Program-made: the position numbers and the translations under genes
Part shown: piece by piece, positions 493-49,595 of the stretch
Numbering within the stretch: the first letter of the stretch is position 1
Layout: each line of letters starts with the position of its first letter
Notes under the pieces: model-generated
Seen by the model: the letters and a program-made list of their open reading frames with translations, nothing else
Databases searched by the model: none
What the model was told of the DNA's origin: nothing
Source of the DNA: an uncultured Actinomycetota bacterium
Lineage (GTDB): Bacteria; Actinomycetota; Actinomycetes; JAHEKZ01
Assembly (NCBI GenBank): GCA_963829525.1
Contig: CAWHIJ010000003.1
Location: 2,240,001-2,304,000, forward strand
Direction: 5' to 3'
DNA length: 64,000 nucleotides

Positions 493-520
493 GCCCTCAT
501 CATTCACCATGCGGCCTCGA

Positions 521-1387
521 TCACCCCGCAACAGCGGCCAGGACGAGCGCCATCACCGGCGCTGTCGGCAGCAGCGAGTCGAGGCGGTCCATGATTCCGC
601 CGTGCTCCGGCAGGAGCCGCCCCATGTCCTTGACGCCGAGGTCGCGCTTGAGCAGCGACTCGGCAAGGTCACCGGCCGTGGCCGTCGCAACCGCGACGAG
701 CCCAACCAGAGCGCCCTGCCACCAGGTGGCATCGAGCAACAGTGGAACAGCAACCGCCGACCCCGCCGTCGCCGCGACGACCGAGCCGGCCACGCCCTCC
801 CATGACTTCTTCGGACTCACAGACGGTGCCATCGGGTGCTTGCCGAATCGCACCCCAGCTGCGAATCCGCCCGTATCACTCAACGCAACAGCCAAGATGA
901 AGATCACAATTCGGTCAGCACCGTCGTCCGCGGACACCATGAGGACCGCAGATGCCGCCAGCAGGGGCACGTAGACCGCGACGAACGCTCCAACAACCAA
1001 GTCCTGGGCCAGTCGATCCTCCGGACCGACGAGGCGCGCCGCCGCCATCGCCACGATGGTCAGAGTCAGCGCAACCGTAAGGGCATCGGTTCCGTCGACG
1101 TACGCTGCGACGACCATGGCTGCCCCACCGACCATGAGAGGAACGACAGGTACATCTATCGAGCGCCCGGACAGAACCTGACACACCTCATAGACGGCGA
1201 TGACAACCGCAACGACCACCAGAGCGACAAAAAGCGCTGTCACCGTGTAGAGGGTGATCAGCACGAGAGCGGCCAATGTCACGCCGACGGCGGTCGCCAC
1301 AGGGATGTTACGGCCAGCTCGGCGCTTCGCTCCCGTGGTGGAACTAGGTTCGGTCGCTGGCACCGGTGACCCAGGTGAGTCCGTCAT
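521..1387 (-). CDS. cdsA: phosphatidate cytidylyltransferase
   Basis: SDTGG and SPKKSWEG...KDMGRLLPEHGGIMDRLDS motifs; follows frr. Confidence 0.95.
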   Translation of the reverse strand: MTDSPGSPVPATEPSSTTGAKRRAGRNIPVATAVGVTLAALVLITLYTVTALFVALVVVAVVIAVYEVCQVLSGRSIDVPVVPLMVGGAAMVVAAYVDGTDALTVALTLTIVAMAAARLVGPEDRLAQDLVVGAFVAVYVPLLAASAVLMVSADDGADRIVIFILAVALSDTGGFAAGVRFGKHPMAPSVSPKKSWEGVAGSVVAATAGSAVAVPLLLDATWWQGALVGLVAVATATAGDLAESLLKRDLGVKDMGRLLPEHGGIMDRLDSLLPTAPVMALVLAAVAG

Positions 1388-1944
1388 TAGACCTCGAGAA
1401 GCTCAGCTTCCTTGTGCTTCAAAAGATCGTCGACCTGTGCAGTGAACTTGTGGGTGAGCTCGTCGAGGTGCTTCTCGGCCCGTCGGACGTCGTCCTCACC
1501 GACTTCCCCATCTTTTTGCAGCTTGTCGAGGTGATCTTTGGCATGTCGACGGACGTTGCGCATTGCCACCCGTGCGTCCTCAGCCTTGTGCTTTGCGACC
1601 TTGATGAACTCCTTCCTGCGCTCCTCGGTGAGGGGCGGAAAGGAGATTCGGATGATCGTGCCATCGTCGACCGGGTTAACGCCCAAGTCGGAGTCGCGGA
1701 TCGCCTTCTCAATCGCGGTGAGTGCACTCTTGTCGTACGGACTGACAATCATCTGCGACGGTTCCGGCGACTGGAACGACGCGAGCTGGTTCACCGGAGT
1801 AGGAGTTCCGTAGTAGTCGGCGAGGATTTTGTTGAACATGGCTGGGTTTGCCCGACCGGTCCGGATCGTCGAGAAGTCCTCCTTGGCAACGGCGATGGCC
1901 TTGCCCATCTTTTCCTCGGCCTCACGCATTGTCTCGTCGATCAT
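1387..1944 (-). CDS. frr: ribosome recycling factor
   Basis: IRTGRANP and [10 protein letters not shown] motifs. Confidence 0.97.
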
Positions 1945-1961
1945 CGACTCCTACCTTCTTC

Positions 1962-2715
<754 letters not shown>

Positions 2716-2751
2716 GAGCAGCTCCTCGGTCGGTCCTGCGCGCAGTCTGCC

Positions 2752-3573
2752 TCAGACCTGGCCGACCTCGAAACGGGCGAACCGGGTGAGCGTGACACCA
2801 GCTTCGGCGAGCACCTGCCTTACCGTCTTCTTCTGGTCTTGGACGCTCGGCTGATCGAGCAGGACGACCTGCTTGTAGAAACCAGTGACACGACCATCGA
2901 CGATCTTCGGAAGCGCCGCTTCCGGCTTGCCCTCCTCGCGGGCGGTCGCCTCGGCGATCCGGCGCTCGTTCTCGACGACGTCGGCGGGAATGTCCTCACG
3001 ACTCAGGTACTGCGGCCGCATCGCCGCCACCTGCATTGCGGCCCCGCGAGCTGCATCGACGTCGCCGCCCTCGTAGCCAACGAGCACACCGACCGACGGC
3101 GGAAGGTCGCTGGCCCGCTTGTGGAGGTAGACCGTGCTGGCACCTTCGAAGACCGCCACACGACCGAGGACGAGCTTCTCGCCGATGACCGCGGCCAGTG
3201 CGTCGATGGCCTGCTGGACGGTCTGGCCGTCCGCAAGTGCCGCGGCCGCCAGCTGCTTCGCTCGACGCCGCCTTCGTGGCAGCCGCGGCTGCGGCGATCT
3301 GCGCACCGCAGGTCCTGGAACTTGTCGTTCTTGGCCACGAAGTCGGTCTCGCAGTTCAGCTCGATCAAGCGCCGATCGGTGGAGGCGACCAGACCATTGG
3401 CGGCGGTGCGCTCGGCTCGCTTGCCAAGACTCTTGGCGCCCTTGATGCGCAGCAGCTCGACGGCCTTGTCGAAGTCGCCTTCGGCCTCTTCGAGTGCCTT
3501 CTTGCTGTCCATCATCCCGGCGCCCGTTGCCTCGCGGAGGCGCTTGACATCGGCGGCGGTGAACGTTCGCCAT
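2752..3573 (-). CDS. tsf: elongation factor Ts (several apparent frameshifts)
   Basis: [25 protein letters not shown] and C-terminal FARFEVG are split across frames. Confidence 0.93.
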
Positions 3574-3622
3574 GGGGTTCCTTCCCTCGTCGATCTGGGT
3601 ACGTGCAGTTGGTCAGGCTTGG

Positions 3623-4518
3623 TCAGCTGGGCTCGGTCTGCGGCCGCGGGCTCGGTCGGTGCGTCGCCGACGACCGGACTCTCGGCCGCCGACTCCTCGA
3701 CTGCCGGGGCATCCACTCGCGACGGGCGGTCGGTCGTCACCGCTGAGCAGCTCGCGCTCCCACTCCGGCAGCGGCTCTGCGGCGCCTGGTTCGGCCGCTC
3801 AGGCTTGGCGTCACCAGTAGCCGCCCCGGCGCGCGAGACCAGGCCATCGGCCACAGCGTCTGCGATCACGCGGGTAAGCAGTGCGACCGAGCGAATGGCG
3901 TCGTCGTTGCCCGGGATCGGGTAGTCGACGACGTCAGGGTCGCAGTTGCTGTCGAGGATCGCGACGACCGGGATGCCCAGCTTGCTTGGCCTCATCGACC
4001 GCGATCGACTCCTTGTTGGTGTCGATGACCCAGAGCGCGCTCGGGGATCTTGGCCATGTCACGGATTCCGCCGAGGGTCCGCTCGAGCTTGACCTTCTCC
4101 CGGCGGAGGACGAGCAGCTCCTTCTTCGTCAGGCCTGAGCCGGCGACATCGTCGAAGTCGATCTCCTCAAGCTCCTTGAGACGCTGCAGCCGCTTGTGCA
4201 CCGTCTGGAAGTTGGTGAGCATGCCACCCAGCCAACGGTGGTTGACGTAGGGCATGCCGACTCGGGTGGCCTGCTCGGCGATGGCCTCTTGGCCTGCTTC
4301 TTCGTGCCGACGAACATCACTGAGCCGCCGTGGGCGACGGTCTCCTTGACGAACTCGTAGGCGCGGTCGATGAAGGCCAGCGACTGCTGCAGATCGATGA
4401 TGTAGATGCCGTTGCGCTCGGTGAAGATGAAACGCTTCATCTTCGGGTTCCACCGACGGGTCTGGTGCCCGAAATGGACACCGCTCTCAAGCAACTGCCT
4501 CATGGTGACGACGGCCAT
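3623..4518 (-). CDS. rpsB: 30S ribosomal protein S2 (several apparent frameshifts; 3' end approximate)
   Basis: [37 protein letters not shown] and [10 protein letters not shown] lie in three frames. Confidence 0.95.
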
Positions 4519-4700
4519 AGCCGAAACTCTCCTCACCCGCGCTGGCGCGCGGTACTCGGTTCTGTGCCCGCGACGGCGCCGCGAACCCTGATGTCTGTCG
4601 CGGCCTGCCGAACCGATCGCGAGATCGGGCCGGACCGAGTGGCCAACCCCCGCGCCCGTGCGAACGGGGCGAGCGGGACGGACATGCGAAGTCACTCTGC
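4519..4700 (-). promoter_or_regulatory. long GC-rich 5' leader of rpsB (candidate S2 autoregulatory leader)
   Basis: About 180 nt non-coding stretch with several inverted repeats upstream of rpsB; call is mainly positional. Confidence 0.4.
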
Positions 4701-4851
4701 GAACAGAGTGCTGGTGCGGAGTCTACGGGCCCGGTCCGGACGGGCCTAATCCGGATTCTCCGACCATGCACAGGTTCCTCGGGTACCCCCGATCCACCGT
4801 CCGGCAGGGGCACGACTCCCATCAGCGGCCCTGGCCGGAAGATCGTCGGTC

Positions 4852-10596: not shown

Positions 10597-10917
10597 TCAC
10601 GCCGAAGGAAGCGTCCCTGGATCAAACTCCGACGGCACAGTCTCCTCGACGTTGACGTCCTTGAAGGTCAGCACCCGCACCTCACGGATGAAGCGGGTTG
10701 GCCGGTAGAGGTCCCACACCCAAGCGTCATTAAGCCGCACTTCAATGTAGGCATCGGACCCATCGACTGGTCTGACCTGCACGTCGACGGCGTTAGCGAG
10801 GTAGAAGCGGCGATCGGTCTCCACTACGTACCTGAACAGCGAGACCACATCGCGGTACTCCCGGTAGAGGGCGAGCTCGAGCTCGGCCTCGTACCGCTCG
10901 AGATCTTCAGCGCTCAT
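10597..10917 (-). CDS. DUF2469 family protein
   Basis: MSAEDLERYE...YVVETDRRFYLAN...DAWVWDLYRP signature; typical rnhB neighbour. Confidence 0.92.
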   Translation of the reverse strand: MSAEDLERYEAELELALYREYRDVVSLFRYVVETDRRFYLANAVDVQVRPVDGSDAYIEVRLNDAWVWDLYRPTRFIREVRVLTFKDVNVEETVPSEFDPGTLPSA

Positions 10918-10977
10918 TGGTACGCCTCGCTCCTCACCACGTTCTAGCGGCGATTTGTTCGCGTCGCGCGGGCTCCA

Positions 10978-11352
10978 TCACCCGCCAGGAAGGATGAGAC
11001 AAAAGGGGTGGTCCTCCGGATCGAGGTACACCCGAAAGAGGGTGCCCGGCTGCACCGCGTGCTTGCGGGCGCCCAAGGCCAACACTGCCGCCTCGCCGAC
11101 ATCGAGGTCATCGAGCTCGAAGTCGAGATGCTCTTGCTGAGGGTGCTCTTGGCCTGGCCACTGCGGAGGTTGGTAGTCGTCGACCCGCTGGAACCCCAAC
11201 GTCGCACCGACGTCACTTCTGAGAGCAACCCAGTCACCGTCAGAGGCGCCCTCGTCGATCGGCCAGCCGGTGATCGCCGAGTAGAACTCCGCAAGGGGGC
11301 GCGGCTCCCGGCAGTCGACGGCAGTCCACGCAAGTCGGCCTATTCGATTCAT
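10978..11352 (-). CDS. VOC/glyoxalase family protein
   Basis: LAEFYSAITGW, PQQEHLDF, VYLDPEDHPFCL. Confidence 0.88.
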   Translation of the reverse strand: MNRIGRLAWTAVDCREPRPLAEFYSAITGWPIDEGASDGDWVALRSDVGATLGFQRVDDYQPPQWPGQEHPQQEHLDFELDDLDVGEAAVLALGARKHAVQPGTLFRVYLDPEDHPFCLILPGG

Positions 11353-14862: not shown

Positions 14863-15670
14863 TTAGTCTGCCACAGGGCCGGGCATCGACCGAAATCGAC
14901 CGTCCGCGACAGTCCAGCCATTCTCGCTGAGTACGTCGAGGTCCCGTGCGTCCAGCTGACCCGGTTCCATGCGCTCGATGAGATCGGGCCGAACACCTGC
15001 CGTTCGTCGGAGCGAAGCATCCCGCCGCCACCGGGCGATAGCACCGTGATGACCCGAGAGCAGAACTTCTGGGACGTCGAGGCCCCGCCACGAAGCCGGC
15101 TTGGTGTACGCCGGCGCCTCGAGCAGTCCGTCGGCATGCGACTCGTCGGTCAGCGAGTCCTCATTCCCCACGACACCGGGCAACAGGCGGCCAACGGCCT
15201 CAATTACTGCCAACGCAGCGACCTCACCACCGTTGAGCACGTAGTCGCCCAGCGAGACCTCGCGAACGCGGAACCGTGAGGCGGCGTCCTCTGCGACCCT
15301 TGCGTCGATGCCCTCGTAGCGGCCGCAGGCAAAGACCAACCAGTTCTCCGCAGCCCATTGCTCAGCCAGCCGTTGGGTGAACGGCTCCCCCGCCGGGCTC
15401 GGGACCACCAGCAGGGGGTCGTCGGCTTCGCGCGAGGCTCTGACATGGTCGAGGGCCGCACCCCAGGGCTCGGCCCGCATCAGCATCCCCGGTCCCCCGC
15501 CGTACGGGGTGTCATCCACCGTGCGGTGCCGGTCGTGGGTGAAGGTCGCGCAGATCATGCACGCTGACCTCGAGCGCGCCGTCGCGGCGCGCCTTACCCA
15601 GCAGCGACAGGTCAAGGACATCGAAGTAGGCAGGGAAGATCGTGACCACGTCGACGTACACGCCGATCAC
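14863..15670 (-). CDS. trmD: tRNA (guanine37-N1)-methyltransferase (apparent frameshift near 15570)
   Basis: VDVVTIFP N-terminus; [31 protein letters not shown]. Confidence 0.94.
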
Positions 15671-16206
15671 CCCACCGTCAGGTCGAGCAGGCCGTCTGGG
15701 AGGTCGACGACGATGCGACCACCGGCGACGTCGACCTCGGGTACGAGTGCCCCGACGAAGGGAATCATGACGCGCCGACCATCGACCCGGGCAACCATGA
15801 GCAGATCTTGAGCGCCATGGACAACGTCGGTGACGCTGCCCAGAGTGGTGCCGCTACGGTCAACGACCCTCAGGCCGACGAGCTGGTGGTCGTAGAACTC
15901 ATCGGGATCGTCGGGGGCCTCATCGGGGTCGACGTCGGTGGACAACAGCACACCTCGCAACGCCTCGACGACGGTGCGGTCGCCGACTTCGGCGAAGTGC
16001 AGAAGCAGCCGACCGCTGTGCCAGCGGAAGTCCTCGACGGTCAGCTGAGGGTGGTCCGCGTGGTCGGTGGACAACACGGTTCCTGGCGCGAAGCGCCGAT
16101 CGGGCTCGTCGGTGCGTGACTCGACGTTCACGTCACCACGGACGCCGTGTGGGCGTCCGATCCGACCCACGACGACCTGCACCGGCTCAGCGCCTCTCGT
16201 GGTCAA
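15667..16206 (-). CDS. rimM: ribosome maturation factor RimM
   Basis: VGRIGRPHGVRG, DEFYDHQLVGL. Confidence 0.94.
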   Translation of the reverse strand: MTTRGAEPVQVVVGRIGRPHGVRGDVNVESRTDEPDRRFAPGTVLSTDHADHPQLTVEDFRWHSGRLLLHFAEVGDRTVVEALRGVLLSTDVDPDEAPDDPDEFYDHQLVGLRVVDRSGTTLGSVTDVVHGAQDLLMVARVDGRRVMIPFVGALVPEVDVAGGRIVVDLPDGLLDLTVG

Positions 16207-18906: not shown

Positions 18907-19248
18907 TCACTCAAGCCAGAACAACTCAGCGAGGGTGGTCAGGCCAAACAGCACCGGAAAGACCAACAGGGGGATCCAGAGCAACGACCAACTCTCATTC
19001 CTCACCTTGGCGACCACGCCGAGTACGAAGGCCAACAGCGCGACCAGCAGCCCACCGAGCAGCGAGATGCCCCCGAGGTAGCCAACGAAATTGTCCTCGA
19101 TGGCCTCGGTGCCTCCGACCGCCAGGGCGATCAAGACGACCGCGTAGGCCAACGAGACGATCACCGCCACCAGTGACCCAAGCCCAACAGCCCATCGGGC
19201 GAGCTTGCTTCTCTCCTGCGGAAGATCGACGACCGGAGTGACTGTCAT
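18907..19248 (-). CDS. small membrane protein, 3 predicted TM segments
   Basis: Three hydrophobic stretches; GGAGG upstream of ATG 19248. Confidence 0.7.
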   Translation of the reverse strand: MTVTPVVDLPQERSKLARWAVGLGSLVAVIVSLAYAVVLIALAVGGTEAIEDNFVGYLGGISLLGGLLVALLAFVLGVVAKVRNESWSLLWIPLLVFPVLFGLTTLAELFWLE

Positions 19249-20051: not shown

Positions 20052-20471
20052 ATGAAACTCCAGAAGCGAGATCTTGTCGCAACCGGCTTGGTGGTAGTTG
20101 CCGGGGTGATTTACCTGCTGTGGCTCCTTGACTCCGTTCCCACAAAGATGAGCGGTGTCCGGACAACAGGCGCCGTCATCCTTGTGCTCGGATTCGCAGC
20201 CTCTGCCACTGCGGTCGTGCCAACTTTCGATCAGCTTCTCCGCGGTAACAAGGTGTACCTAACCGTGACATCCTTGCTTGGCTTGGTGGCCCTAGTTGCC
20301 GGCGTATTGATGCTGGTCGAAGCGAGCGAGACCGCGCTGGCCGTGGTGATGTTCGCCATGGTCGCGATGTGGCTGATAGCGACAACCCATCACAGCCTCC
20401 TGGCCCAGACCACTTCGCCGAAGCCTGCACAAGGGGCACGTGAGACCTGGCGGCCAAAGGTCAACGTCTGA
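20052..20471 (+). CDS. membrane protein, 4 predicted TM segments
   Basis: Four hydrophobic segments; GGGAGG SD. Confidence 0.72.
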   Translation: MKLQKRDLVATGLVVVAGVIYLLWLLDSVPTKMSGVRTTGAVILVLGFAASATAVVPTFDQLLRGNKVYLTVTSLLGLVALVAGVLMLVEASETALAVVMFAMVAMWLIATTHHSLLAQTTSPKPAQGARETWRPKVNV

Positions 20472-20610
20472 GGGCTGCACTGTGGTGCGACCAACCTGAC
20501 CAACGCCCTGCAGCTCTGCCAGGTCCTCGGCACTGCAGTGTCGTACCTCGACCACATCGGGAGGTCGATCTCCAACAGACCCCAGATCGTCATCGAGCAT
20601 GCGATCTCCG

Positions 20611-21790
20611 CTAGCCCAGCAGGGCGTCGACGAAGACCTCTGGGTCGAACGGCGCAAGGTCGTCGGGGCCTTCGCCAAGGCCGACGAGCTTGACGGGAAC
20701 ACCGAGCTCGCGCTGCACCGAGACGACGATCCCGCCCTTGGCGGTGCCGTCGAGCTTGGTCAGCACAACGCCGGTGACATCGACCACCTCGGCAAAGACC
20801 TTGGCCTGCGCCATGCCGTTCTGACCGGTCGTCGCATCGAGGACCAGCAAGACTTCGTCGACAGGAGCCTTCTTCTCGATGACTCGCTTCACCTTGCCCA
20901 GCTCGTCCATCAGGCCCGGTCTTGGTGTGCAGGCGCCCCGCGGTGTCGACGAGCAGCACGTCTGCCTCCGAGTCGATCGCAGCCGTCACCGCGTCAAAAG
21001 CGACACTCGCCGGATCACCACCTTCGGGTCCACGAACAACAGGCACTCCGACCCGGTCGCCCCAGGTCTGTAGTTGGTCGGCGGCTGCGGCCCGGAACGT
21101 GTCTGCCGCTCCCAGCACGACGTCGCGATCTTCTGCAACCAGTACGCGCGCCAACTTGCCGGTCGTCGTGGTCTTGCCGGTGCCGTTCACTCCGACGACA
21201 AGAACGACCGCCGGTCGACCAACAGCCTCAACGGCCAACGACCGGTCAGCGGCAGGGTCGAGGAGACCGAGCAGCTCGAAAACGCAGAAGTTTCGAGGCG
21301 AGGCTCCTGGCTCAGCGCGCAGTGCCGCCCGCAGACCCTCGACGACCTCGGCGGCGATGCCAACGCCGGTATCGGCGGCGATCAGTGAGTCCTCGATCTC
21401 TTCCCACGTCGCATCGTCGACGGTCGACCGTGATAGCAGGGCGACGATCCCCTGCCCTAGTCCACCCGACCGGGCCAGGCGGTCCCGGAGTCTGGCCATT
21501 CGCCCGGCGACCGGAGCCGGACGGTCCAGGATGGCGAGGTCGCCGCTACCATCTGCACCGCGCCTAAATCGGCGTCGTCCGGCAGCGGCACCGTCGCGAT
21601 GGTCCGCTTCGGAGTGTCACGCGGCGGCGCAGCATCGTCGCCCACTCCCGGGACGTGCGTGCTCACGCGGCGGCGCCCCCGCGGTCGGGGCCGAGCGGCC
21701 CCGACCGGCTCGGAATGCGAGCATGCCAAGCCCGAAGACGAGCGCGAGCGCCAGAAGGCTGATGAGCACGATGAGCGCGATGGGATCCAC
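20611..21790 (-). CDS. ftsY: SRP receptor FtsY (apparent frameshifts)
   Basis: N-terminal [44 protein letters not shown] across frames. Confidence 0.93.
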
Positions 21791-30680: not shown

Positions 30681-30753
30681 ACTCTCCAGGTACGTCATGG
30701 CTTCTCCAGGTACGTCATGGCTTCTCCAGGTACGTCATGACTTCTCCAGGTAC
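30681..30753 (-). repeat. 20-bp tandem repeat (about 3.6 units) encoding overlapping mini-ORFs
   Basis: Unit cttctccaggtacgtcatgg repeated between recG and rsmD. Confidence 0.95.
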
Positions 30754-32939
30754 TCGGCCTGCTCATCAGACTCGAGGATGGTGACAGCGGCCTCCAGGTC
30801 TGGGTAGGAGGTGAGCGATGCGTCGTCAGCGACCAGTGAGACCGCGTCATCCCTGGCAGCAACGATGATCTTCTCGTCGGAGACAGCTCGCAGCACCTTC
30901 AGACTCGACCGGACCCCCGACTGGGCTGCGCCAAGCACGTCGCCCTCCCGGCGTTGCTCGAGGTCTATCCGAGCCAGCACGAATCCGTCGCTGGTTCCGG
31001 CAACCGCTTCAAGCCGCTCGCGAGCCGGACTCTGGTCGGGCAGCTCGGTGACCAGGAGACAGAGGCCGGCGACGTCACCTCGACCCACACGACCACGGAT
31101 CTGGTGCAGCTGCGAGATACCAAACCGATCAGCGTCCATGACCACCATGACGCTGGCGTTGGGGACGTCGACACCGACCTCAATCACGGTGGTGGCGACC
31201 AGGACGTCGATCTCGCCGGCGGCGAAACTCGACATCACCGCCTCCTTGACCTCAGACGGAAGCTGTCCGTGCAGGACGCCCACGCGGCAGTCGGCCAGCG
31301 GACCGTCAGCAAGGAATCGAGCGAGGGCGAGCACCGAATGCTGTTCTGGCACAGCGGGCTCTCCAGGCGCAGCACCACCGGGCCCGTCGAGGTCGTCACC
31401 GATCCTCGGGCAGACGACATAGGCCTGCCGCCCCTTGCCGACCTCCTCGGTGATCCGCTCCCAGGCGCGGTCGAGGTACCTCGGCCGATCCGCGGCCGGA
31501 ACCACGTGGGTACTGATCTGCTGGCGGCCCTGGGGTAGCTCGGTCAACGTCGAGACGTCGAGGTCGCCAAAGATCGTCATGGCAACGGTCCGCGGAATCG
31601 GAGTTGCCGTCATCACAAGCACATGTGGCGGAGTCTCGGCCTTGGCACGCAGAGCCTCGCGCTGCTCGACCCCGAAGCGGTGCTGCTCGTCGATGACGAC
31701 CAGCCCGAGGTCAAAGAAGTCCACATGCTCCTGCAGCAGCGCATGGGTACCGACCACGATCCCTGCCTCGCCCGACGCGACGTCGAGCAAGGAGGCTCGA
31801 CGCTGCGCAGTGGGTTGGCTTCCGGTCAGCAGCCGGACACGAGTTGCTTGAGGGGGTGAGCCGAGCAGACCACCGTCGGCCAAGGGCCCCAGCATCGCCG
31901 TCATCGTGCGGAAGTGCTGCTGGGCCAACACCTCAGTCGGAGCCAGCAGAGCCGCCTGGCCACCGGCGTCGACAACGCTGACCATGGCCCGTAGCGCGAC
32001 AACCGTCTTGCCTGAGCCGACCTCGCCCTGCAGCAACCGGTGCATCGGATGCGTCTGGGCAAGATCGCCGGCGATCTCTTCGTTGACCTCGCATTGACCT
32101 GCGGTAAGAGCGAATGGAAGGCGGGCGTCGAACGCGGTGAGCAGCCCGCCGTCGAGAGGTACCCGCGGCGTGGCCGCAGTCTCGGCGAGCACCGCTCGTC
32201 TTCTGGCGAGGACAGTCTGAAGCACGAGCGCCTCGTCGTACGCCAGCCGCCGACGCGCGGCGTTCACCTCGTCCATCGAACGCGGGCGGTGCAGCGTTCG
32301 ATAAGCCTCAGTGCGAGACATCAGTCCCTCGCGCGCCGTGACCGCTGGCGGCGTCAGCTCGGGCAGTTCGGGCATGGTGTCGAGCAGGACGGAGACGGCC
32401 TTCTGGATGCGCCAGGTGGGCAGCTGTGCCGTCGCCGGGTAGATCGGGATCAGGAAGCCGGTGAACGCGGCAAGGGTGCGCAAGTCACGCTCGATGTCAC
32501 CGTCTGCGCCGAAGTCGTCGGTCGCACCGAAGATGACGTAGTCAGGGTGGGTAAGTTGTCGGCGTCCCGCGCGAACGTCAACCGTGCCCGCGAAGAGACC
32601 TCGCATGCCCACCTGCAGCTGACGCTCGCGCCATGGCTGGTTGAAGAAGGTCAGCGACAACTTCTGTTTTCCGTCCGTGACGATGACTTCGCAGATTGTT
32701 CCTTTGCGCTGCCGCATGCGGCGCGATGACACCGCTGCAACCTGAGCCAAGACCGTCGCCTGCTCCCCCACCTGCAGGCGTCCGATGTCGGAGAGCTGCC
32801 CGTGTTCGCCATAACGTCGAGGCAGATGGTCGAGGAGGTCACCCACTGTCTGCAGATCCATGGCACCGAAAGCCTTGGCGGTGGCGCCGCCGACCACGCC
32901 CCGCAGTGGCTGGCGCAGCCAATCGGCGGAGTCGGTCAT
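30735..32939 (-). CDS. recG: ATP-dependent DNA helicase RecG
   Basis: QGEVGSGKT, DEQHRFG, MTATPIPRT, QIRGRVGRG. Confidence 0.97.
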   Translation of the reverse strand: MTDSADWLRQPLRGVVGGATAKAFGAMDLQTVGDLLDHLPRRYGEHGQLSDIGRLQVGEQATVLAQVAAVSSRRMRQRKGTICEVIVTDGKQKLSLTFFNQPWRERQLQVGMRGLFAGTVDVRAGRRQLTHPDYVIFGATDDFGADGDIERDLRTLAAFTGFLIPIYPATAQLPTWRIQKAVSVLLDTMPELPELTPPAVTAREGLMSRTEAYRTLHRPRSMDEVNAARRRLAYDEALVLQTVLARRRAVLAETAATPRVPLDGGLLTAFDARLPFALTAGQCEVNEEIAGDLAQTHPMHRLLQGEVGSGKTVVALRAMVSVVDAGGQAALLAPTEVLAQQHFRTMTAMLGPLADGGLLGSPPQATRVRLLTGSQPTAQRRASLLDVASGEAGIVVGTHALLQEHVDFFDLGLVVIDEQHRFGVEQREALRAKAETPPHVLVMTATPIPRTVAMTIFGDLDVSTLTELPQGRQQISTHVVPAADRPRYLDRAWERITEEVGKGRQAYVVCPRIGDDLDGPGGAAPGEPAVPEQHSVLALARFLADGPLADCRVGVLHGQLPSEVKEAVMSSFAAGEIDVLVATTVIEVGVDVPNASVMVVMDADRFGISQLHQIRGRVGRGDVAGLCLLVTELPDQSPARERLEAVAGTSDGFVLARIDLEQRREGDVLGAAQSGVRSSLKVLRAVSDEKIIVAARDDAVSLVADDASLTSYPDLEAAVTILESDEQAEYLEKS

Positions 32940-32962
32940 GACGGCGTCACCGAACCTTCATG

Positions 32963-34672
32963 TCACTCGACGCCGATCAGCAACGGATAGTGCGACTGGC
33001 CTCCGTCGTAGACCACGACCTCTACGTCGAGCCGCGTCTGGTGGAGGTGTCGTCGCACCGCCTCGGCCAAGGGCCGACCGGGCAGCGGATCCTCACCACA
33101 AACGAGGGTGACCAGCTCACCTCCCGCGGCCAGCATCCGGTCCGTGACAGCGCAGGCGACCACCTCTGCGGCGTCACCGAGTACGACGATGTCGTTCTCC
33201 ACCAAACCGAGGATCTGTCCGGGGTGGCAGATCCCAGCCGACGTCATGGCTTCCCGCTCGGCTCTGGCTAGCCCTCCGAACCGGGTGGCTGCGGCCGCAG
33301 CGGACATGGCGACGACGTCCTCGGTGAACGTTCGCTCGACATCTCGCACGGCCATCGCGGCTAACCCCTGGACGTCGGCGTGCGTGGGCAGAACGGCGAC
33401 CTGTGTGCCCTTCTCGCGCAGCTCGACGGCCGCCGCCTCGGCCGCCGCTCGATGATCGTCGTCGTTGGGCAGCAGCAGAACTTCCTCCGCAGACCCGGCT
33501 GAGGCAACGAGCGCAGCCGGGGTGGGACGGTGGCCCGACCCACCGATGACGACCGCTGCCCCAGCCGCTTCGAAAAGTGCCGCAAGAGCCGGACCCGATG
33601 CCACGGCAACAACCTGCCGAGGGCCGCCACGCCCCAGCACGTGATCGCCATGGCCAGTTGGCAGTGTCGGCGTCATGGTCGATTGCGGGCGGAGCGGGGT
33701 GATGCGGATCCGATAGACCCGACCGGCGGCCACGCCGATCTCGACAGCTGGGCCGGCGTCGTCGGTGTGCACGTGGACGTTCCACAAGCCGTCTCCGCCC
33801 ACCACGACCACCGATGCCCCGATTTCATCGAGCCGCTGACGAACCTGCGAGGCGGCATCGTCACCAGCATCGAGCAGGTACATGACCTCGAAGGCGCCGT
33901 CACCGTCGCCGAGGAGCTGAGCGGCGTGGACTGCGGCCGACAGGTGCCCGGGCTCGGGCGCCGGAGCGTGGCCGAGCCCAAAGCTGCTGAGCACCGCGGC
34001 CGCAGATGAGGCGCTCGGGTCGACGGTGGCCCGCAGGGCTTCCAGGATCAGGACCAGCCCCTGACCGCCGGCATCAACCACCCCCGCTGCCGCGAGCACG
34101 GGCAATAGCTCTGGCGTCACCGCCAATGCATCGGCGGCGCCATCGGCAGCTGCCGCGGTCACAGCGGCTAGGCCGGCGCTCACCTGATCTGTTGCGGCTA
34201 CGGACGCAGCAGCGGAGACGGTCAAGATTGTCCCTTCAACCGGTCGCGCCACTCCTGTGTAGGCGAGCTCTGCGGCCCTGACCAATGCGGCCGCCAGCAC
34301 CGACGCCGCATCGGCCGCTTGGAGTCGTTGGTCCTGCGGCCCGGTGGACTCCGCGAACGTCTCCGCAATCCCGCGCAGGAGCTGGGCCACGATGACACCT
34401 GAGTTGCCCCGGGCACCGAGCAGGGCGCCACGCGACCAGGCGGCTGCGGCGGCGGCGAGGGGCGGCACGCCGTCGGGTCGGCCGGCAATGGCCTCAGCCA
34501 GCGCCGTGGATGCTGCCTGCCAGGTCAACAGGAGATTTGTGCCCGTGTCGCCGTCGGGCACCGGGAAGACGTTGAGTGCATCGATGTCATAGCGAGCCGC
34601 CTGCAGGAGGACCTCACCGCGGCTGGCCCAGTCTGTCAGCTGGTCGCATCCGAACTCTGTCGTCACGCTCAC
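32963..34672 (-). CDS. DAK2-domain protein (fatty acid kinase FakA-like)
   Basis: NVFPVPDGDTGTN, GARGNSG, VVDAGG, GGQSHYPLLIGVE. Confidence 0.92.
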   Translation of the reverse strand: MSVTTEFGCDQLTDWASRGEVLLQAARYDIDALNVFPVPDGDTGTNLLLTWQAASTALAEAIAGRPDGVPPLAAAAAAWSRGALLGARGNSGVIVAQLLRGIAETFAESTGPQDQRLQAADAASVLAAALVRAAELAYTGVARPVEGTILTVSAAASVAATDQVSAGLAAVTAAAADGAADALAVTPELLPVLAAAGVVDAGGQGLVLILEALRATVDPSASSAAAVLSSFGLGHAPAPEPGHLSAAVHAAQLLGDGDGAFEVMYLLDAGDDAASQVRQRLDEIGASVVVVGGDGLWNVHVHTDDAGPAVEIGVAAGRVYRIRITPLRPQSTMTPTLPTGHGDHVLGRGGPRQVVAVASGPALAALFEAAGAAVVIGGSGHRPTPAALVASAGSAEEVLLLPNDDDHRAAAEAAAVELREKGTQVAVLPTHADVQGLAAMAVRDVERTFTEDVVAMSAAAAATRFGGLARAEREAMTSAGICHPGQILGLVENDIVVLGDAAEVVACAVTDRMLAAGGELVTLVCGEDPLPGRPLAEAVRRHLHQTRLDVEVVVYDGGQSHYPLLIGVE

Positions 34673-38001: not shown

Positions 38002-39027
38002 TCAGCCTATGTCGGGCGCCACGGCGCGGTGCCACTCCGGCTTGGCAACCCGACTCATCAACGACACAACCATGTCACGCGGCGACCAGCCCTGCTCGAT
38101 CACTCCGGAGACGTGCTCGGTGATAGGCATGTCCACCTGGTGCTCCTGGGCCAGCTCCAGTACCGCTGCGCAAGACGTGACGCCCTCGGCTGTCTGGGCG
38201 GTGATCGCGGCAACCTCATCCATCGTCATCCCACGGCCGAGGTTCTCGCCGAACGTGCGGTTCCGTGAGAGCGGGGACGAGCAGGTCGCGATCAGGTCTC
38301 CCACTCCAGCCAGCCCCATGAAGGTCAGCGGGTCTGCCTCCATGGCAACCCCCAGTCGGGTCATCTCGGCCAGTCCCCGCGTCATGATCGCCGCTTTGCT
38401 GTTGTCGCCGAAGCCCATCCCTTCGGCCATGCCGGTGGCCAAAGCGATGACGTTCTTCACCACTCCGCCGAGCTCAACCCCGACGACATCGGCGTTGGTG
38501 TAAGGGCGAAAATAGGGGGTTCTGGTCCACTCCTGGACCTGGGTGGCGACGTCCCCATCGGCACACGCGATCACGCTGGCGGTCGGTTGACGCTGTACCA
38601 CCTCGCGGGCGAGGTTCGGGCCGGAGAGCACCGCGATGCGTTCGGCCGGACAGTTCCCCTCCGACGCCACCACCTCGCTCATCCGGGCGTGCGAGCCCTG
38701 CTCGAGGCCCTTCAGGAGGCTGAGCACGACGGCCTTGGGCGGGATCTGTTCCGCCCACATCGAGAGGTTGGCCCGCAGTGACTGAGCCGGGACAGCCAAC
38801 ACCACCAGATCGGCACTGGACAGTGCCTCGCGCGTGTCAGCGAAGGCTGTCACCCTCGCTGGCAGCTCGAGGTCTGGATGGAACTGGGCATTGCGGCGTG
38901 ATGAGTTCACGGCGGCAACTGTTGTCGGGTTGCGCCCCCAAAGGCGTACCTCGTGGCCGGCGTCGGCAAGGACGAGACCGAAGGCGGTGCCCCACGAGCC
39001 GAGCCCCATGACGGCTGCCTGCATCAC
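38002..39027 (-). CDS. gpsA: NAD(P)H-dependent glycerol-3-phosphate dehydrogenase
   Basis: GLGSWGT, LSGPNLA, GLAGVGDL..TC.S..SRN. Confidence 0.96.
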   Translation of the reverse strand: MMQAAVMGLGSWGTAFGLVLADAGHEVRLWGRNPTTVAAVNSSRRNAQFHPDLELPARVTAFADTREALSSADLVVLAVPAQSLRANLSMWAEQIPPKAVVLSLLKGLEQGSHARMSEVVASEGNCPAERIAVLSGPNLAREVVQRQPTASVIACADGDVATQVQEWTRTPYFRPYTNADVVGVELGGVVKNVIALATGMAEGMGFGDNSKAAIMTRGLAEMTRLGVAMEADPLTFMGLAGVGDLIATCSSPLSRNRTFGENLGRGMTMDEVAAITAQTAEGVTSCAAVLELAQEHQVDMPITEHVSGVIEQGWSPRDMVVSLMSRVAKPEWHRAVAPDIG

Positions 39028-39082
39028 GGCCTCCTTCTAGTTCTGACGTCGCTCAGGTGATCACAGTCGCGCTCACGACGCG

Positions 39083-39835
39083 TCACACCGGGTCGCGACC
39101 GGCGCGGCTCTGATTCTTGCGTGGGTTACCGGTCCGTGGCAGGTCGGACGCGCGCGGGTCGAACAGTGAAGTTGGCGCGAGGTCGTGCCGGAGATCGGCG
39201 AGCAGTCCGCTCACCGACGTCATGATCGCGCCGGTGAGTGCGCGAAAGTCCGGAGGATCGGTCGTCGAGAGCTCAAGAGGGGGCCCGGCCAGCACCCGAA
39301 TCAGCGGTCTGCGCCACACCCGGGGTACCCGACCGTACGGCGCAAGGAGTTCTTCTGGCCCCCACTGTGCGACCGGAATGACGGGGCACCTGGTCTGCCA
39401 CCACACGCGGGCGGCCCCTGTCTTGCCCAGCATCGGCCAGAGGTCGGGATCCCGTGTCAGCGTTCCCTCGGGGTAGATCACGACGCACTCACCCCTTCGC
39501 ACCGCGTCCACGGCAGCCGCCAGGGCCGAGCCCGCGTGCTCGCTCTCTCGCTGGACGGGGATCTGACCGGCCGCGTGGAGCAGGTCACCGAGGACCGGAA
39601 CGTCGAAGAGTTCAGCCTTCCCCAAGAATCGCGGACGCCGGCCCGCGGCGTCGACGAAGTCAGCAATGGTCAGAGGGTCCGCGTGCGAGACGTGGTTGGA
39701 CACGACAACACAGCCGCCTTCGGCCGGAAGGTGCTCCTGGCCGCTCCATTCCCGGCGACTGGCGATTCGCAGGGCGGGGCGGAGGATCGCGCGGGCCACC
39801 GAGTACGTGGCACCAGGGCCGCTGGCAGCGCCCAC
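39083..39835 (-). CDS. 1-acyl-sn-glycerol-3-phosphate acyltransferase (PlsC family)
   Basis: NHVSHAD and YPEGT motifs; start approximate. Confidence 0.9.
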   Translation of the reverse strand: MGAASGPGATYSVARAILRPALRIASRREWSGQEHLPAEGGCVVVSNHVSHADPLTIADFVDAAGRRPRFLGKAELFDVPVLGDLLHAAGQIPVQRESEHAGSALAAAVDAVRRGECVVIYPEGTLTRDPDLWPMLGKTGAARVWWQTRCPVIPVAQWGPEELLAPYGRVPRVWRRPLIRVLAGPPLELSTTDPPDFRALTGAIMTSVSGLLADLRHDLAPTSLFDPRASDLPRTGNPRKNQSRAGRDPV

Positions 39836-42109: not shown

Positions 42110-43555
<1,446 letters not shown>

Positions 43556-43644: not shown

Positions 43645-43661
43645 GTCTCAGATGTCGAAAC
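43645..43661. promoter_or_regulatory. candidate NdgR/IclR operator in the leuC-ndgR intergenic region
   Basis: Imperfect palindrome GTCTCAGATGTCGAAAC; 15/17 identical copy upstream of leuB. Confidence 0.6.
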
Positions 43662-43675
43662 GGCAGTATCGGGTT

Positions 43676-44392: not shown

Positions 44393-44442
44393 GACATGGT
44401 CTCCTGACGCACCGCTCTCCGGTGGATCGGGGCTAATCGCGG

Positions 44443-46134
44443 CTAAACGGTGCCAGGACCCTCAGAATCCCCCGGATCGGCATCGATCCACCGCTGGGCC
44501 TCGGCGACCGCACGGGCGAGCGCTGCGCCTATACGTTCGTCGCCAATGACCACGCCGTCCGGCCCGACGATGTCGGTCACACCGCCCGACAGCAGTTGCC
44601 GCATCACTCGCTCGTCGACTGAGACGACGACGAGCCGGGACCCTGCATCATCGAGCTGCGCGGCATACCGGGCCAGAACGTCGATGAAGGTGGTGCCGAG
44701 GTCCATGTGTCCACGAAGACGCACGATGACCACAGACCTCCGGCTGCCGGCTTCGACGCGGGGCAGGGCTGCCTCGAACACAGGAGCCGACGCGAAGAAG
44801 AGGCTTCCGTATGGCTGCAGCACCACTACCTGGCCGGCAGGGACGACCGCGACCGGCTCGACCTCGACGACGTCACCCGAGGGTGAAGCGATGCGCTGCC
44901 TTACCAGCACCTGGTTGGACTGCTGAACGACGTGCAGAACGACCGACACACCGACACCGACGAGGACCGCATACTGCAGCGGCACGAGCATCGTGAGCAC
45001 GAACGTGACGACCAACACCGCCCGCTGTACGAGGCCCGCCTTCCACACGGACATGATGTCGTCCGGCTTGATCGTCCGTACACCGACAAGGATCAGGAGG
45101 CCGGCGAGGGCGGGCATGGCCAGGTAGCCGACGGCCGACCCGAAGAAGCAGCACCACGACCGCCATGACCAGCGCAGCGATCATCGGCGCGAGGCGCGTC
45201 CGTGCACCTGCAGCCGCGTTGATCGCAGAGGCCGACGCGGAACCACCGACAGGCATGCCGCCGGTCATGGCGCACGCGACGTTGGCGAAACCCTGGCCGA
45301 CGAAGTCCCGCGAAGCGTCCGCCCGCTGGCCATCCGCCTTGCCGTAGGTGGCCGAGATCCCGGCCCCCTGGACCAGGCCAACAAAGGCGAGCGACGCGGC
45401 CGGCAGGAGGAGGTCTGGAGCGAGTGCGGCCGACGGCAGCGTCAGCGGAGGGAGTCCTTCGAGGGCCACACCCAGGTCGCTGAGCGTTGCGACACTTGAC
45501 CACCCCAGCAGCGCCGCGAGCGCCGACGTGGCGATCACAGCGACGACGAGCCCGATCGACCCCGACTCGCGTTCGCTCGAGGACGACGATGAGCGCGATG
45601 GTCGCGAGGCCGATCGTCACGCTGGGCCAGTCCACGCTCGCCGGCGAGAGGACGGTGTTGACGTGCGCACGATTCGGTTGTCCCCCGGGGCGGCGTAACC
45701 GGTGAGGTTGGCGACCTGGCCGAGCACGATGTTGACGCCGACGGCGTTCATGAAGCCCACGAGCACCGCGTTCGACACGAACCGCAGGAGCGAGCCGAGC
45801 TTCAGCAGCCCGGCCAGCAGCATCACGGCGCCGGTGAGGACCGCAAGGGTGGCCACCGCCTGCGCCTGGTCTGCGCCGCCATGAAGCCCCGGCACGTCGG
45901 CGATGACCATCGCCATCGCGCCGGTGCCCTGCACGACCATGAAGGCCGAGGACGTCACCGCGGCGCCGGCGAGCGTGCCGACCATGTAGCCGTAGAGGCC
46001 GTTCAACGGGCTCAGCCCAGCGAGCAGCCCCGTGGCCAGGCCGTCCGGGACGCTCTGCACGCCGAGGACGACGCCGGCCTGCGCGTCGTGCCGCAGCGTC
46101 CGCGACCACGCGATGGCAGCCTGATGCGCGTCAC
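44443..46134 (-). CDS. SulP family anion transporter with STAS domain (several apparent frameshifts)
   Basis: VPDGLATGLLAGL.P..GLY, GGMPVGGS.S, YGSLFFASA across frames. Confidence 0.85.
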
Positions 46135-47201
46135 GCGCGGTCCTCCACAGGCAGGTCGGCCGAGGGCAGCCTCCCCGTGCCGGTCCGCCAGCGCCACCAG
46201 CCGAACGTGAGCGCACCGAGCAGCAGGGTCCCGATGAGGGTGACGACGCGCCACACGACCAGCGCTGCCACGATCTCCGGCTCTGCCGCATCCCTGCCGT
46301 CTCGGTGTAGGTGACGACGAGCGCGGCATCGAGCACGCCGAGGCCGGCCAGGGGCAGTGCGGTGAGCGGGTAGTAGATGAAGAAGCTGCCCAGGACGATC
46401 GCCACGGGTAGCAGCGTCGCGTCCACGCCCACGAGCCGGAGACAGAGCAGGACGATGACCCCGTCGGTCACGACCATCGCAGCCAGCGCGGCGAGCGACG
46501 GCGGGAGCCCCGGACCAGGCGGGTGGACATACGCGCCCGGAAGCCGGCCGCCGTCTCCGCCCAGTCGTCAGCATCGACACCCTCGCGGAAGCGGGCGGCG
46601 ACGAGGGCCGCCCGGCGTCCGACCAGTCGCGGCGAAGCGCTCGCCGCGGGCGACCAGGATCAGAGCCACGACGATCGCGGCAGCGACCACCAGCGAGAGC
46701 ACGGCCGACCAGACCTGCGCTCCCGACAGGTCCTCACCGACGAGCAGCCAGGACGCCGAGGATGGGGATGCTGAAGCGGATGACGTAGAACGCGAGGCTG
46801 TTCAGCGTCACCCCTGGCATGCCGTCGGCCGGCGTGATGCCCCAGGAACCGGAACATCGAGACTCGGACGACGATGTCGCCCGGAGGCGGCGCCACGGTG
46901 CCGACCAGGTTCGCCGTGAGGTCATTCTGGAACCCCCGCCAGAACCCGAGCCCAGGCACGAACACTGCCAGGGGCACCGAGTTGAACGCCTGCCGAGCGA
47001 GCAGCAGTGCGAGGAGCGCGGGGGCCTGCGCCCAGTCCAGCTGCCCGAGCGCGGTCGCGACCTGCTGCCAGTCGACCGAACCCACCAGTGAGACGAGCAG
47101 CCTCGCGACGAGGAAAGAGACCACCAGGAAGAGGAGCGGCCGCAGGACAGCACCCACCAGCGGCTCTCGGCGAAGCCTGCGCACCCGTCCATCGCGCTCA
47201 C
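46131..47201 (-). CDS. multi-TM membrane protein, probable lysylphosphatidylglycerol-synthase TM/flippase-like family (frameshifted)
   Basis: Hydrophobic segments; NLVGTVAPPPGD, PLAGLGVLDAAL and EIVAALVVWR in different frames. Confidence 0.6.
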
Positions 47202-47241
47202 CGGTGCATCAAGGCTGGCCCTGTGTCGGTCGGCGCCCAGA

Positions 47242-49595
47242 TCACTGCCGAGCCAGCGCCGCGGACAGCCGCAGCTGCGGGTCGACGAGGTGGTTGAAGT
47301 CGGCGGCGCCGTCGGCCAGCTCGATGAGCACAGAGTGCACGGTGCCGGTGAACTCGCAGTCCTGGGCGCGGTAGTCGTCGCTGACCGGCAGGCCCCCGTC
47401 GCGTCCCACGTCGCACGTCTCGTCGAGCGAGAAGACGAGCGGCACGGTGCGCTCGAGCCTGCCCTCGGCCACCGTCTCCCCGTCGACCGTCAGCGACGAT
47501 GTCGCCGCCACGCCCCGGCCCCCCGCCGTCGTACGCGAAGGACATGACGACCCGGTGGCTGCCCGCGGGGAGCGCCTTCGTGCCGGCGACCTTCGTGACC
47601 TGCAGGCCCATGAGGTTGTAGCAGTAGACGGGGACGCCGTCGTGGCGCAGGTAGAGGCTCCAACCGCCGAACGCGCCGCCCTGCGCGATGATGACGCCCG
47701 ACGCGCCCCCCTCCGGGACCTCGATGTCGGCGGCCACGGCGTGCGAGACGTTCTTGATGTTGATGACGGTCGCCTCGGTGAGACGGCTCATGCCGCCGTA
47801 GAGGATCTGCTTGCGGCCGGTGATCAGCTGTGGCCGCCCGGCGATGGTGGCGTCGAACCGCTCGACCCGCCTGTCGTCCAGCGGCAGGACGTTGTACTTC
47901 CTCGCCTCCACCAGGAAGAGCTCCTGCAGCTCTCGGAGCTTCTCCGGCATCCGCTCGGCGAGGTCGTCCGCCTGCGTCCAGTCGTCCGGCGCGTACAGCT
48001 CCCAGACGTCGTCGACGAATGCCGGCAGCTCGGCCATCGCGATCCACGGGGTGGCGTGCTTGGTGACCGCGGTCCAGCCCTCGTGGTAGATGCCCCGGTT
48101 GCCGCCGATCTCGAAGTACTGCGTCGTGTGGCGGTCGGGCGCCTCGGCGTCGTCGAACGCGTACCTCATGCTCACGCCGTGCAGCGGGGTCTGCTCTGCC
48201 CCGTTGACGCTGCTCGGGGTGCGGGATGCCCGCGACCTCGAGGATGGTCGGGGCGATGTCGATCACGTGGTGGAACTGGTGGCGGACGCCGGTCGATGCG
48301 ATGCCCGACGGCCAGTGGACCACGGTCCCGTTCCTCGTACCGCCCCAGTGGGACGCCACCTGCTTCGTCCACTGGTACGGCGTGTCCATCGCGTGCGCCC
48401 ACCCGACCGAGAAGTGGTTGTACGCCTCAGGCGTGCCGAACTGGTCGATGCGCGCGGCCATGAACTCCGGCGTCTCGAGCGCGGCGGCGCCATTGAAGAA
48501 GAGGTACTCGTTGAAGCTGCCGTTGATGTGCCCCTCGGCCGAGGCCCCGTTGTCGCCGATGACGTAGAAGACCAGGGTGTTGTCGAGAGCCTCCAACTCG
48601 TCGAGAGCGTCGACCAGACGACCGATGTGGTGGTCGGTGTGCTCCAGGAAGCCCGCGTACACCTCCATCTGGCGCGCCAGGACAGGCTTCAACTCGGGCG
48701 GCATGTCGTCCCACGCCGGGATCTCGTCGTGGCGAGCCGTGAGCTCAGCCTCTTCGGGGACGACTCCCCGGCGCTTCTGCTCGGCGAAGATGCGCTCCCG
48801 CAGGGCGTCCCATCCGTCGTCGAACTCGCCCCGGTACTTGTCCGCCCACTCCAGCGGCACGTGGTGAGGCGCATGCGTCGCCCCGGGTGCGTAGTACATG
48901 AAGAAGGGGCGATCAGGGGTCAGCGCCGACTGCTGACGGACCCAGGCGATCGCGCGATCGGTCATGTCCTCGGTGAAGTGGTAGCCGTCGTCCGCCGTCG
49001 CTTCTTGCTCGATCGGGGTCGTGCCGCTGTAGAGGGCGGGCGCGTACTGGTTGGTCTCGCCGCCGAGGAAGCCGAAGAAGTGCTCGAAGCCACCACCACC
49101 CGTTGGCCACGCGTCGAAGGGCCCGACTGGGCTGGTCTGCCACACGGGGACCTCGTGGCACTTGCCGAACTGCGCGGTCGCGAAGCCGTTCAGCCGGAGC
49201 ACCTCCGCCAACGGTGCGGTGGACTGCGGCCGGACCGACGTGTACCCGGGAGCCGAAGTCGCGATCTCGGTGATCGCGCCCATCCCTACGGCGTGATGGT
49301 TGCGGCCCGTCAGCAACGCCTGCCGGGTGGGCGCGCACAGCGCCGTCGTGTGGAACCGGGAGAAGGACAGGCCGTTGCCCGCCAGTCTCTCGGCGGTGGG
49401 CGTACGGCAAGGCCCGCCAAAGGTGCTCGCCGCCCCGAAGCCGACGTCGTCCAGCAGGATCACGAGCACGTTGGGTGCACCCTCCGGCGGCCGTACAGGG
49501 GCTATCGGCTCGAACACCGCCCGAGGATCCTTGGCGTCCTCGTAGACAGGACCTGCGTACTGCTTGTCCGGCATCGGAAGGATCGAACGGTCCAT
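47242..49595 (-). CDS. Cys-type arylsulfatase (apparent frameshifts near 48200 and 47500)
   Basis: PNVLVILLDDVG, CAPTRQALLTGR (CxPxR), FGKCHE; C-terminal domain in other frames. Confidence 0.9.

Follow-up and report, generated by a model that had tools for sequence, protein, structure and literature searches.

A window of 64,000 nt (G000:C3:2240001-2304000) from the genome of an uncultured sediment actinomycete contains a series of gene junctions at which the stop codon of one gene, set in an RTGA (ATGA or GTGA) context, is bridged to the start of the next gene by tiny open reading frames (mini-ORFs) that are joined to one another by stop/start overlaps. We propose that the long relays of this kind are probably the footprints of small insertions, mostly tandem duplications, at junctions that formerly overlapped directly as RTGA or TGATG, with the survival of these insertions being filtered. 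The host genome (G000; 2.96 Mb, 65% G+C, 3 contigs) comes from a freshwater-sediment metagenome assembly, and the closest named relatives of its RsmD, at no more than 52% identity, belong to uncultured Actinomycetes, Nocardioidaceae and Corynebacterium.

We re-derived the chains on the minus strand with our own script, following the rule of an earlier sequence-only reading of the window (restart at the RTG overlapping the stop, and again at each further RTGA), and then read the sequences. All the junction genes are co-directional (minus strand), their names are confirmed by Pfam (including CdsA and TetR), and at five junctions every link is either a 4-nt (RTGA) or a 1-nt (TGATG) stop/start overlap. 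The features concerned are the following:

504..524, minus strand: cdsA–tetR mini-ORF of 6 codons, from GTG524-522 over the cdsA TGA 523-521 (GTGA); its own stop, TGA 506-504, overlaps GTG507, which is in frame with tetR
10934..10981, minus strand: VOC–DUF2469 mini-ORF 1; VOC stop at 10978, GTG10981, 15 codons, stop in a GTGA context
10914..10937, minus strand: VOC–DUF2469 mini-ORF 2; GTG10937, 7 codons, its TGA overlapping ATG10917, the DUF2469 start
32936..32966, minus strand: DAK2–recG relay; DAK2 stop at 32963, 23-nt spacer, three mini-ORFs from GTG32966 (2 codons), ATG32961 (4) and GTG32950 (4), landing on recG ATG32939
30675..30738, minus strand: recG–rsmD relay; recG stop at 30735, three 7-codon mini-ORFs from ATG30738, ATG30718 and ATG30698, landing on rsmD GTG30678 (VTRIIGG)
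30683..30753, minus strand: 20-nt tandem repeat CGTACCTGGAGAAGCCATGA, 3.5 copies (period 20 by TRF), from the 3' end of recG; each unit at the recG–rsmD junction has GGAG, five bases and ATGA
39024..39086, minus strand: plsC–gpsA mini-ORF; plsC stop at 39083, GTG39086, 20 codons, TGA 39026-39024 overlapping gpsA ATG39024 by 1 nt and GTG39027 (one codon before ATG39024) by 4 nt; the Shine–Dalgarno sequence AGAAGGAGG sits within it
47198..47245, minus strand: sulfatase–membrane protein junction; true sulfatase stop GTGA 47245-47242, the frame from GTG47245 running to GTGA 47201-47198

The sequence-only reading had counted six of ten such chains as reaching the next gene, and its observation is partly confirmed. 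The five chains at the junctions from cdsA to gpsA were reproduced base for base. At the sixth, the restart frame from the sulfatase stop misses the frame of the membrane protein unless an indel is assumed, and since the sulfatase gene is read in three frames in the assembly, the indel assumed earlier cannot be judged. Among the four chains said to fail, we recovered the failures of coaD, of the protein at 18907 and of DUF2469; that of an ‘acyltransferase’ could not be placed, the RTGA-ending gene at 15667-16182 (minus strand) being RimM (Pfam RimM and PRC_RimM) and not an acyltransferase. The start of tetR has three candidates, ATG510, GTG507 and the genus-conserved ATG492 (ATGACTTTGGCA). Just before tetR (492-512, minus strand), the stretch AATGATGAGGGCATGAC is conserved across the genus (loci L189-L201) and holds a 4-codon frame (ATG ATG AGG GCA TGA) whose end coincides with the tetR ATG; this stretch may serve as an operator or for ribosome binding.

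The history of these junctions becomes apparent from the relatives (the locus counts include L023 and L064, both from genome G025, one row each, with no conclusion hanging on them). At recG–rsmD, DAK2–recG and plsC–gpsA, direct 4-nt or 1-nt stop/start overlaps are found in relatives, and within the genus these overlaps have been widened by insertions, including 20-nt and 10-nt tandem repeats each carrying an RTGA. The recG–rsmD junction was compared across 29 loci: 12 have a direct RTGA overlap and 2 a CTGA one, 5 combine a spacer with a different stop, and 10 have an RTGA stop followed by a spacer of 10-109 nt. Nine of these last ten land on rsmD (eight exactly and L022 within two codons), the relay in L009 being broken by a TAG. 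Of 20 further Actinomycetes, 7 have a direct overlap, one has its relay intact (L218, 31 nt) and 12 have layouts without coupling. The number of whole 20-nt units at this junction varies, with 3 in G000, 2 extra units in L002 and 1 extra unit in L004, while contigs from two sediment-metagenome runs of two other studies (X5 and X6), representing a strain that is ~96-97% identical, join 30682 to 30723, i.e., have 40 nt less and two 20-nt units fewer. When up to three mismatches are allowed, the unit occurs in G000 only at recG–rsmD (3 copies), apart from one unrelated 3-mismatch match. As 20 is 2 mod 3, the frame of each unit automatically ends on the ATG of the next one.

At DAK2–recG, among 21 loci with an RTGA stop, 10 are in frame directly from the overlapping RTG, 5 connect via mini-ORFs and 6 fail, one of the failures (L005) ending in a TGATG overlap. 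A 10-nt unit that is present in one copy in G000 and L003 is repeated six times in L004 with its chain intact, and in L002 a plain in-frame restart takes the place of the relay over a spacer that is likewise 23 nt long. The sequence-only reading had held that most units of these chains are not repeats; this does not stand for recG–rsmD, with its 3.5 copies, nor for the DAK2–recG family, given the sixfold repeat of L004. A palindrome, TGACGCCGTCA (32940-32950, minus strand), abuts the recG start and is conserved in L003 and L004. At plsC–gpsA, 9 of 12 loci from the genus overlap by 1 nt, and the relay is kept in all three that have spacers (58, 66 and 46 nt; these are the three closest genomes). 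Locus L052 (genome G007) has an inverted repeat, CCCCTTGT...ACAAGGGG, in its plsC–gpsA spacer, which suggests that the insertion there carries a hairpin.

The two remaining chains behave differently. The VOC–DUF2469 chain is conserved in none of five relatives, all of which end VOC with TAG or TAA, and is therefore peculiar to G000. At cdsA–tetR, 14 genomes of the genus have 10 RTGA stops and 4 other stops, and the 10 RTGA loci divide into 4 exact relays, 3 that are in frame and 3 that are broken. The VOC–DUF2469 chain and much of the cdsA–tetR one are such as a TGA-rich genome of 65% G+C would probably yield by chance. Across the relatives, then, the frame connectivity expected by the sequence-only reading is kept at recG–rsmD and plsC–gpsA and lost entirely at VOC–DUF2469 and in part at cdsA–tetR and DAK2–recG.

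Briefly, we envisage the following mechanism. A ribosome ending at an RTGA could restart at the overlapping RTG. The piece that is duplicated at such a junction would comprise the last codons of the upstream gene, with their embedded Shine–Dalgarno sequence, together with the stop/start overlap, and hence each extra copy would be a complete mini-cistron. When the unit length is 2 mod 3 (20, 8 or 14 nt), the mini-ORF would end exactly on the next RTG, making the chain automatic, whereas units of 0 mod 3 would only lengthen the downstream protein and those of 1 mod 3 would send ribosomes out of frame across the next start. A duplication that parts an overlapping pair would end the coupling, except where the frame of the copy itself relays the ribosome, since coupling in E. 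coli and Haloferax is described as collapsing to near nothing by a spacer of about 20 nt (excerpts of Huber et al. 2023, PMC10666635). Restart frames ending on the next start, or close to it, would be harmless and would probably relay the ribosome; those crossing that start out of frame would be selected against. The data are in line with units of 2 mod 3 and 0 mod 3 surviving. At recG–rsmD, the relay may be harmless rather than needed, as each 20-nt unit has its own GGAG, and rsmD may therefore be started directly.

For the genome-wide counts, genes were called with a self-trained hexamer caller with Shine–Dalgarno and start-codon weights, the final version of which uses a frame-discriminating score and replaced an earlier one that gave similar results. 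In G000, it yields 2723 genes at 85% coding density, with uncertain start sites. The comparison genome, G010, belongs to the same genus, has ~72-76% DNA identity to G000 and was analysed over 2.31 Mb. We took co-directional neighbours with an upstream RTGA stop and a spacer of 0-200 nt (226 pairs in G000 and 173 in G010) and shuffled each spacer 300 times while keeping its length, dinucleotides and end codons. Chains that reach the next start or any in-frame start (loose success) number 118 in G000 against 113.7±5.2 in the shuffles (72/300 reach the real count) and 83 in G010 against 79.1±3.8 (52/300). Those ending within two codons of the called start (strict success) number 40 against 37.4±2.5 (56/300) and 29 against 26.3±2.0 (40/300), respectively. 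Chain success is thus at the shuffle level in both genomes, contrary to the excess that the sequence-only reading had anticipated. Under the loose rule about half of all such RTGA junctions succeed, and ‘six of ten’ is what this composition yields: the summed shuffle probabilities predict ~3.6 loose successes among 9 junctions of the window against the 5 seen. The individual loose probabilities are 0.98 for cdsA, 0.85 for DAK2, 0.77 for coaD, 0.27 for recG–rsmD, 0.26 for plsC, 0.15 for VOC and 0.09-0.15 for the three others. Longer chains are somewhat more frequent than in the shuffles, those with at least two mini-ORFs numbering 6 against 1.9 in G000 (7/300) and 3 against 1.3 in G010 (39/300), and those with at least three 2 against 0.32 (13/300) and 1 against 0.14 (41/300). 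Both of the 3-link chains of G000 are the recG junctions of the window, and the strict multi-link forms there (DAK2–recG 3-link, 0.001; recG–rsmD, 0.033) are the only individually unlikely ones.

As the shuffles keep spacer length, they are blind to any signal in spacer phase. Direct overlaps of 4 nt are the main junction type (306 in G000 and 245 in G010), occurring in about one co-directional pair in six, and in both genomes spacers of 1, 4, 7, 10, 13 and 16 nt are prominent after RTGA stops. At gaps of 0-40 nt, the RTGA share for gap lengths of 0, 1 and 2 mod 3 is 10%, 26% and 29% in G000, with a baseline of 14.5% at convergent gene ends, and 11%, 31% and 16% in G010, with a baseline of 15.5%; phase 0 differs from phase 1 in each (p=8.5e-4 and p=3e-4). 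Phase 1 is the sole phase that lets the frame from the overlapping RTG end on the next start, and in phase 0 the restart frame coincides with that frame of the next gene in which stops are scarce. For an internal control, we compared real restarts, with an RTG over the TGA stop, to mock ones, with a CTG or TTG over it, the in-frame phase being dropped. At gaps of 0-40 nt, the next gene was overrun by more than 16 nt in 15/55 real against 71/127 mock frames in G000 (p=4e-4) and in 13/50 against 52/103 in G010 (p=5e-3), real frames overrunning at about half the mock rate. Landings on the start over the same gaps were 21/55 against 31/127 (p=0.07) and 23/50 against 20/103 (p=0.001). The overrun result holds with a gene score of at least 20, with a gene length of at least 450 nt, with a C-only mock and with gaps of 0-1 nt dropped. 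It is strongest at 0-16 nt (pooled 16/60 vs 78/121, p=1.7e-6), a trend only at 17-40 nt, and absent at 41-200 nt (22/89 vs 56/207 in G000 and 20/73 vs 46/150 in G010), a range that takes in three of the five window chains. The survival filter is detectable only at spacers of up to about 40 nt, and the earlier proposal that spacers are selected for ribosome coupling is upheld in part: the short spacers have the phase and overrun bias, and there is nothing above 40 nt.

We infer that ribosomes do restart at these RTGs and that selection is the source of the bias. Extending this beyond the window, we advance more tentatively, with slightly less than even confidence, that RTGs over TGA stops may be functional restart sites genome-wide in these high-G+C actinomycetes, with selection shaping the phase of short spacers. 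Lengths of 1, 4, 7, 10, 13 and 16 nt would be favoured after RTGA, the same-frame phase would be avoided because a restart there would continue into and through the next gene, and the filter would admit only duplications of 2 or 0 mod 3. The bias was seen in two genomes of one genus. An association between RTGA stops and RTGA starts in class 1 at gaps of 0-40 nt is suggestive only (odds ratios 2.1, p=0.06, and 1.8, p=0.17). Frameshift fragments were considered as the main source of the phase bias and rejected: when the last 120 nt of the upstream genes were scored, the upstream frame out-scored the downstream one in 98-100% of pairs in every class. Phase tables conditioned on a ‘closed’ downstream frame were also dropped, the same-frame class being always closed and the conditioning asymmetric. 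Separately, both genomes have a sharp peak of exactly 1-nt spacers after CTGA stops (18 pairs in G000 and 17 in G010) and a peak of exactly 2-nt spacers after TAG or TAA stops (14 and 13 pairs).

Several points weigh against the proposal of filtered duplications and its extension. There is no excess of landings over the fixed-length shuffles in G000 or G010, and the excess of chains with at least two links is small and has a repeat-made chain counted within it. Part of the purine excess at short gaps is found before TAG and TAA stops too, which suggests an effect of Shine–Dalgarno sequences that adjoin the stop; what the signal mainly amounts to is hence a shortage of same-frame RTGA, and this clean part, the deficit in phase 0, rests on small numbers (3:26 and 4:16 at gaps of 0-16 nt). 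Repeats covering an RTGA stop have a period of 2 mod 3 in 5/9 cases in G000 and in 1/3 in G010, a weak bias, and several of their chains do not reach the next gene. The plsC–gpsA insertion offers no sequence evidence of tandem duplication, no repeat being seen. The genome-wide counts come from an ad hoc caller (83-85% coding density, uncertain starts) and not from curated annotation, and G000 and G010, having orthologous junctions in common, are not independent replicates. Finally, the G000 assembly has frameshift errors, rpsB being spread across three frames and the genes for tsf, ftsY and sulfatase each across two or three:

3003-4695, minus strand: rpsB
2752-3995, minus strand: tsf
20390-21499, minus strand: ftsY
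47198-49595, minus strand: sulfatase

As rpsB, tsf and ftsY are each intact in one frame in G010, we estimate roughly one indel error per 8 kb within the window. This raises the alternative that the chains are themselves artefacts, created by indel errors or by a collapsed or expanded repeat, and the contigs of the likely source run do break inside the 20-nt repeat, so that the copy number of 3 is without independent confirmation. We nevertheless consider an artefact very improbable: the same layouts recur in assemblies of other species and in contigs from two further studies, the cleaner G010 has a genome-wide bias no weaker than that of G000, and the spacers are short and without long homopolymers. 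Still harder to credit is a role at the level of DNA or peptide, with the repeats serving as regulator binding sites (e.g., TGACGCCGTCA at the recG start) or the mini-ORFs as micropeptides. The conservation of that palindrome (32940-32950) in L003 and L004 and of AATGATGAGGGCATGAC before tetR across the genus would suit such a role; the encoded peptides, however, have only 2-20 residues and are not conserved between relatives, and the 20-nt unit, copied from the end of recG itself, is confined in the genome to the recG–rsmD locus.

A more serious competitor is pure chance and composition, whereby RTGA-linked chains reaching the next gene arise without selection or any special origin; we regard this as possible but rather unlikely to be the whole account. 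In a genome in which TGA makes up 68% of stops, out-of-frame stops are scarce and genes commonly start with an RTG followed by A, such chains come cheaply, as is borne out by the agreement of real and shuffled success in two genomes, the ~3.6 of 9 loose successes expected in the window against 5, the shuffle probability of 0.98 for cdsA–tetR, the restriction of the VOC–DUF2469 chain to G000 and the equality of real and mock restarts at 41-200 nt. Chance leaves unexplained the ancestral overlaps plus repeat units at both recG junctions, the retention of 9/10 relays at recG–rsmD over differing spacer lengths, the bias in phase and in overrun that both genomes have at 0-40 nt and the strict 3-link chain of DAK2–recG. 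At the other extreme, the sequence-only reading took spacers of all lengths to be positively selected as relays, forming an unannotated layer of operon control that might be tuned, e.g., by copy number. Relays are indeed kept at recG–rsmD and plsC–gpsA, landings are enriched at short spacers, and the repeat copy number differs between strains. This reading appears improbable, since success does not exceed the shuffles, there is no signal above 40 nt and the relatives break the connection throughout at VOC–DUF2469 and in some cases at cdsA–tetR and DAK2–recG; further, L002 swaps the DAK2–recG relay for a plain in-frame restart over the same 23-nt spacer, and a GGAG at the right distance in each 20-nt unit leaves rsmD startable without a relay. 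The data suit a filter on junction duplications better than they suit a regulatory layer.

The arrangement itself is also of a known kind, combining termination–reinitiation with relays like those of MIRUs (mycobacterial interspersed repetitive units), and in this respect the claim of an unannotated layer falls away. Termination–reinitiation coupling at 4-nt (ATGA/GTGA) and 1-nt (TGATG) overlaps is described in the excerpted texts of Huber et al. 2019 (PMC6728339) and Huber et al. 2023 (PMC10666635). Every chain link in our window is such an overlap, and, judging from the junction sequences, termination–reinitiation would appear to be the main link between neighbouring genes in this genus. Unlike plain termination–reinitiation pairs, one to four tiny frames lie here between the real genes. 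In MIRUs (Supply et al. 1997, via the relevant passages of a 2025 review, PMC12548453), small ORFs overlap the preceding gene's stop and the following gene's start and are coupled at -4; the same passages note that short ORFs may exist only to bring ribosomes to a coupled gene. Like MIRUs, the repeats studied here are intergenic tandem repeats within putative operons, whose small ORFs overlap both flanking genes and whose copy number varies (3, 2 and 1 units in G000, L002 and L004, and 40 nt fewer in X5/X6). They fall outside the MIRUs in unit size, dispersal and host: the units are of 20 nt, and 10 nt in L004, as against about 46-101 nt; they are copies of the local junction and not a dispersed family, the 20-nt unit occurring only at recG–rsmD; and the host is an uncultured sediment actinomycete and not Mycobacterium. 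Short upstream ORFs supplying a coupled gene with ribosomes have also been reported (Shell et al. 2015, as cited in PMC12548453), with the upstream ORF of iraD (excerpts of PMC5574718) and a synthetic nonsense-peptide ORF (excerpts of PMC13255528) as further cases. As in these, the frames here are short, lack evident protein function and have a stop overlapping the start of a real gene; unlike these single leaders at the 5' end of a message, they lie between two genes and can be chained. Bicistronic designs are another case of a short ORF feeding a coupled gene.

In the literature searched for either, we found no described spacer periodicity or RTGA phase rule; the sources consulted, excerpts of PMC2716372 among them, assign phases to spacers and mention no influence of the stop's context. 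Of all the results, only this dependence of spacer phase on stop context, seen at short spacers, merits wider testing; should it hold on curated annotations, start-site prediction and operon modelling for high-G+C genomes would benefit. If the generalization advanced above is true, new spacers would keep arising from junction duplications, and operon spacing would obey a general rule that can be tested. Under the proposal of filtered duplications, such junctions would evolve by slippage that doubles the overlap, with the copies that keep up the ribosome hand-over persisting as tiny relay frames. The 1, 2 and 3 units at recG–rsmD and the 1 or 6 units at DAK2–recG form a natural allelic series, from which one could learn over what distance and how many restarts a bacterial ribosome can be handed along.

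Further repeats were seen elsewhere in these genomes. Outside the window, at G000:C3:596373-596418 (minus strand), an 8-nt tandem repeat, GTGACCGT, of 5.8 copies begins at a gene's GTGA stop and gives a chain of four mini-ORFs that ends short of the next gene, 102 nt away; similar cases with 14-nt repeats lie at C3:230772 and C3:2206207. Intergenic tandem repeats of period 32 (2.2-3.5 copies) were found at G000:C3:30431-30509, 59783-59887 and 514799-514909 and at G010:C17:256850-256920, with a match of 98-100% in G000 and 79% in G010, and as their units have GAGTGC and TTGAC motifs in common, they may constitute a dispersed repeat family.

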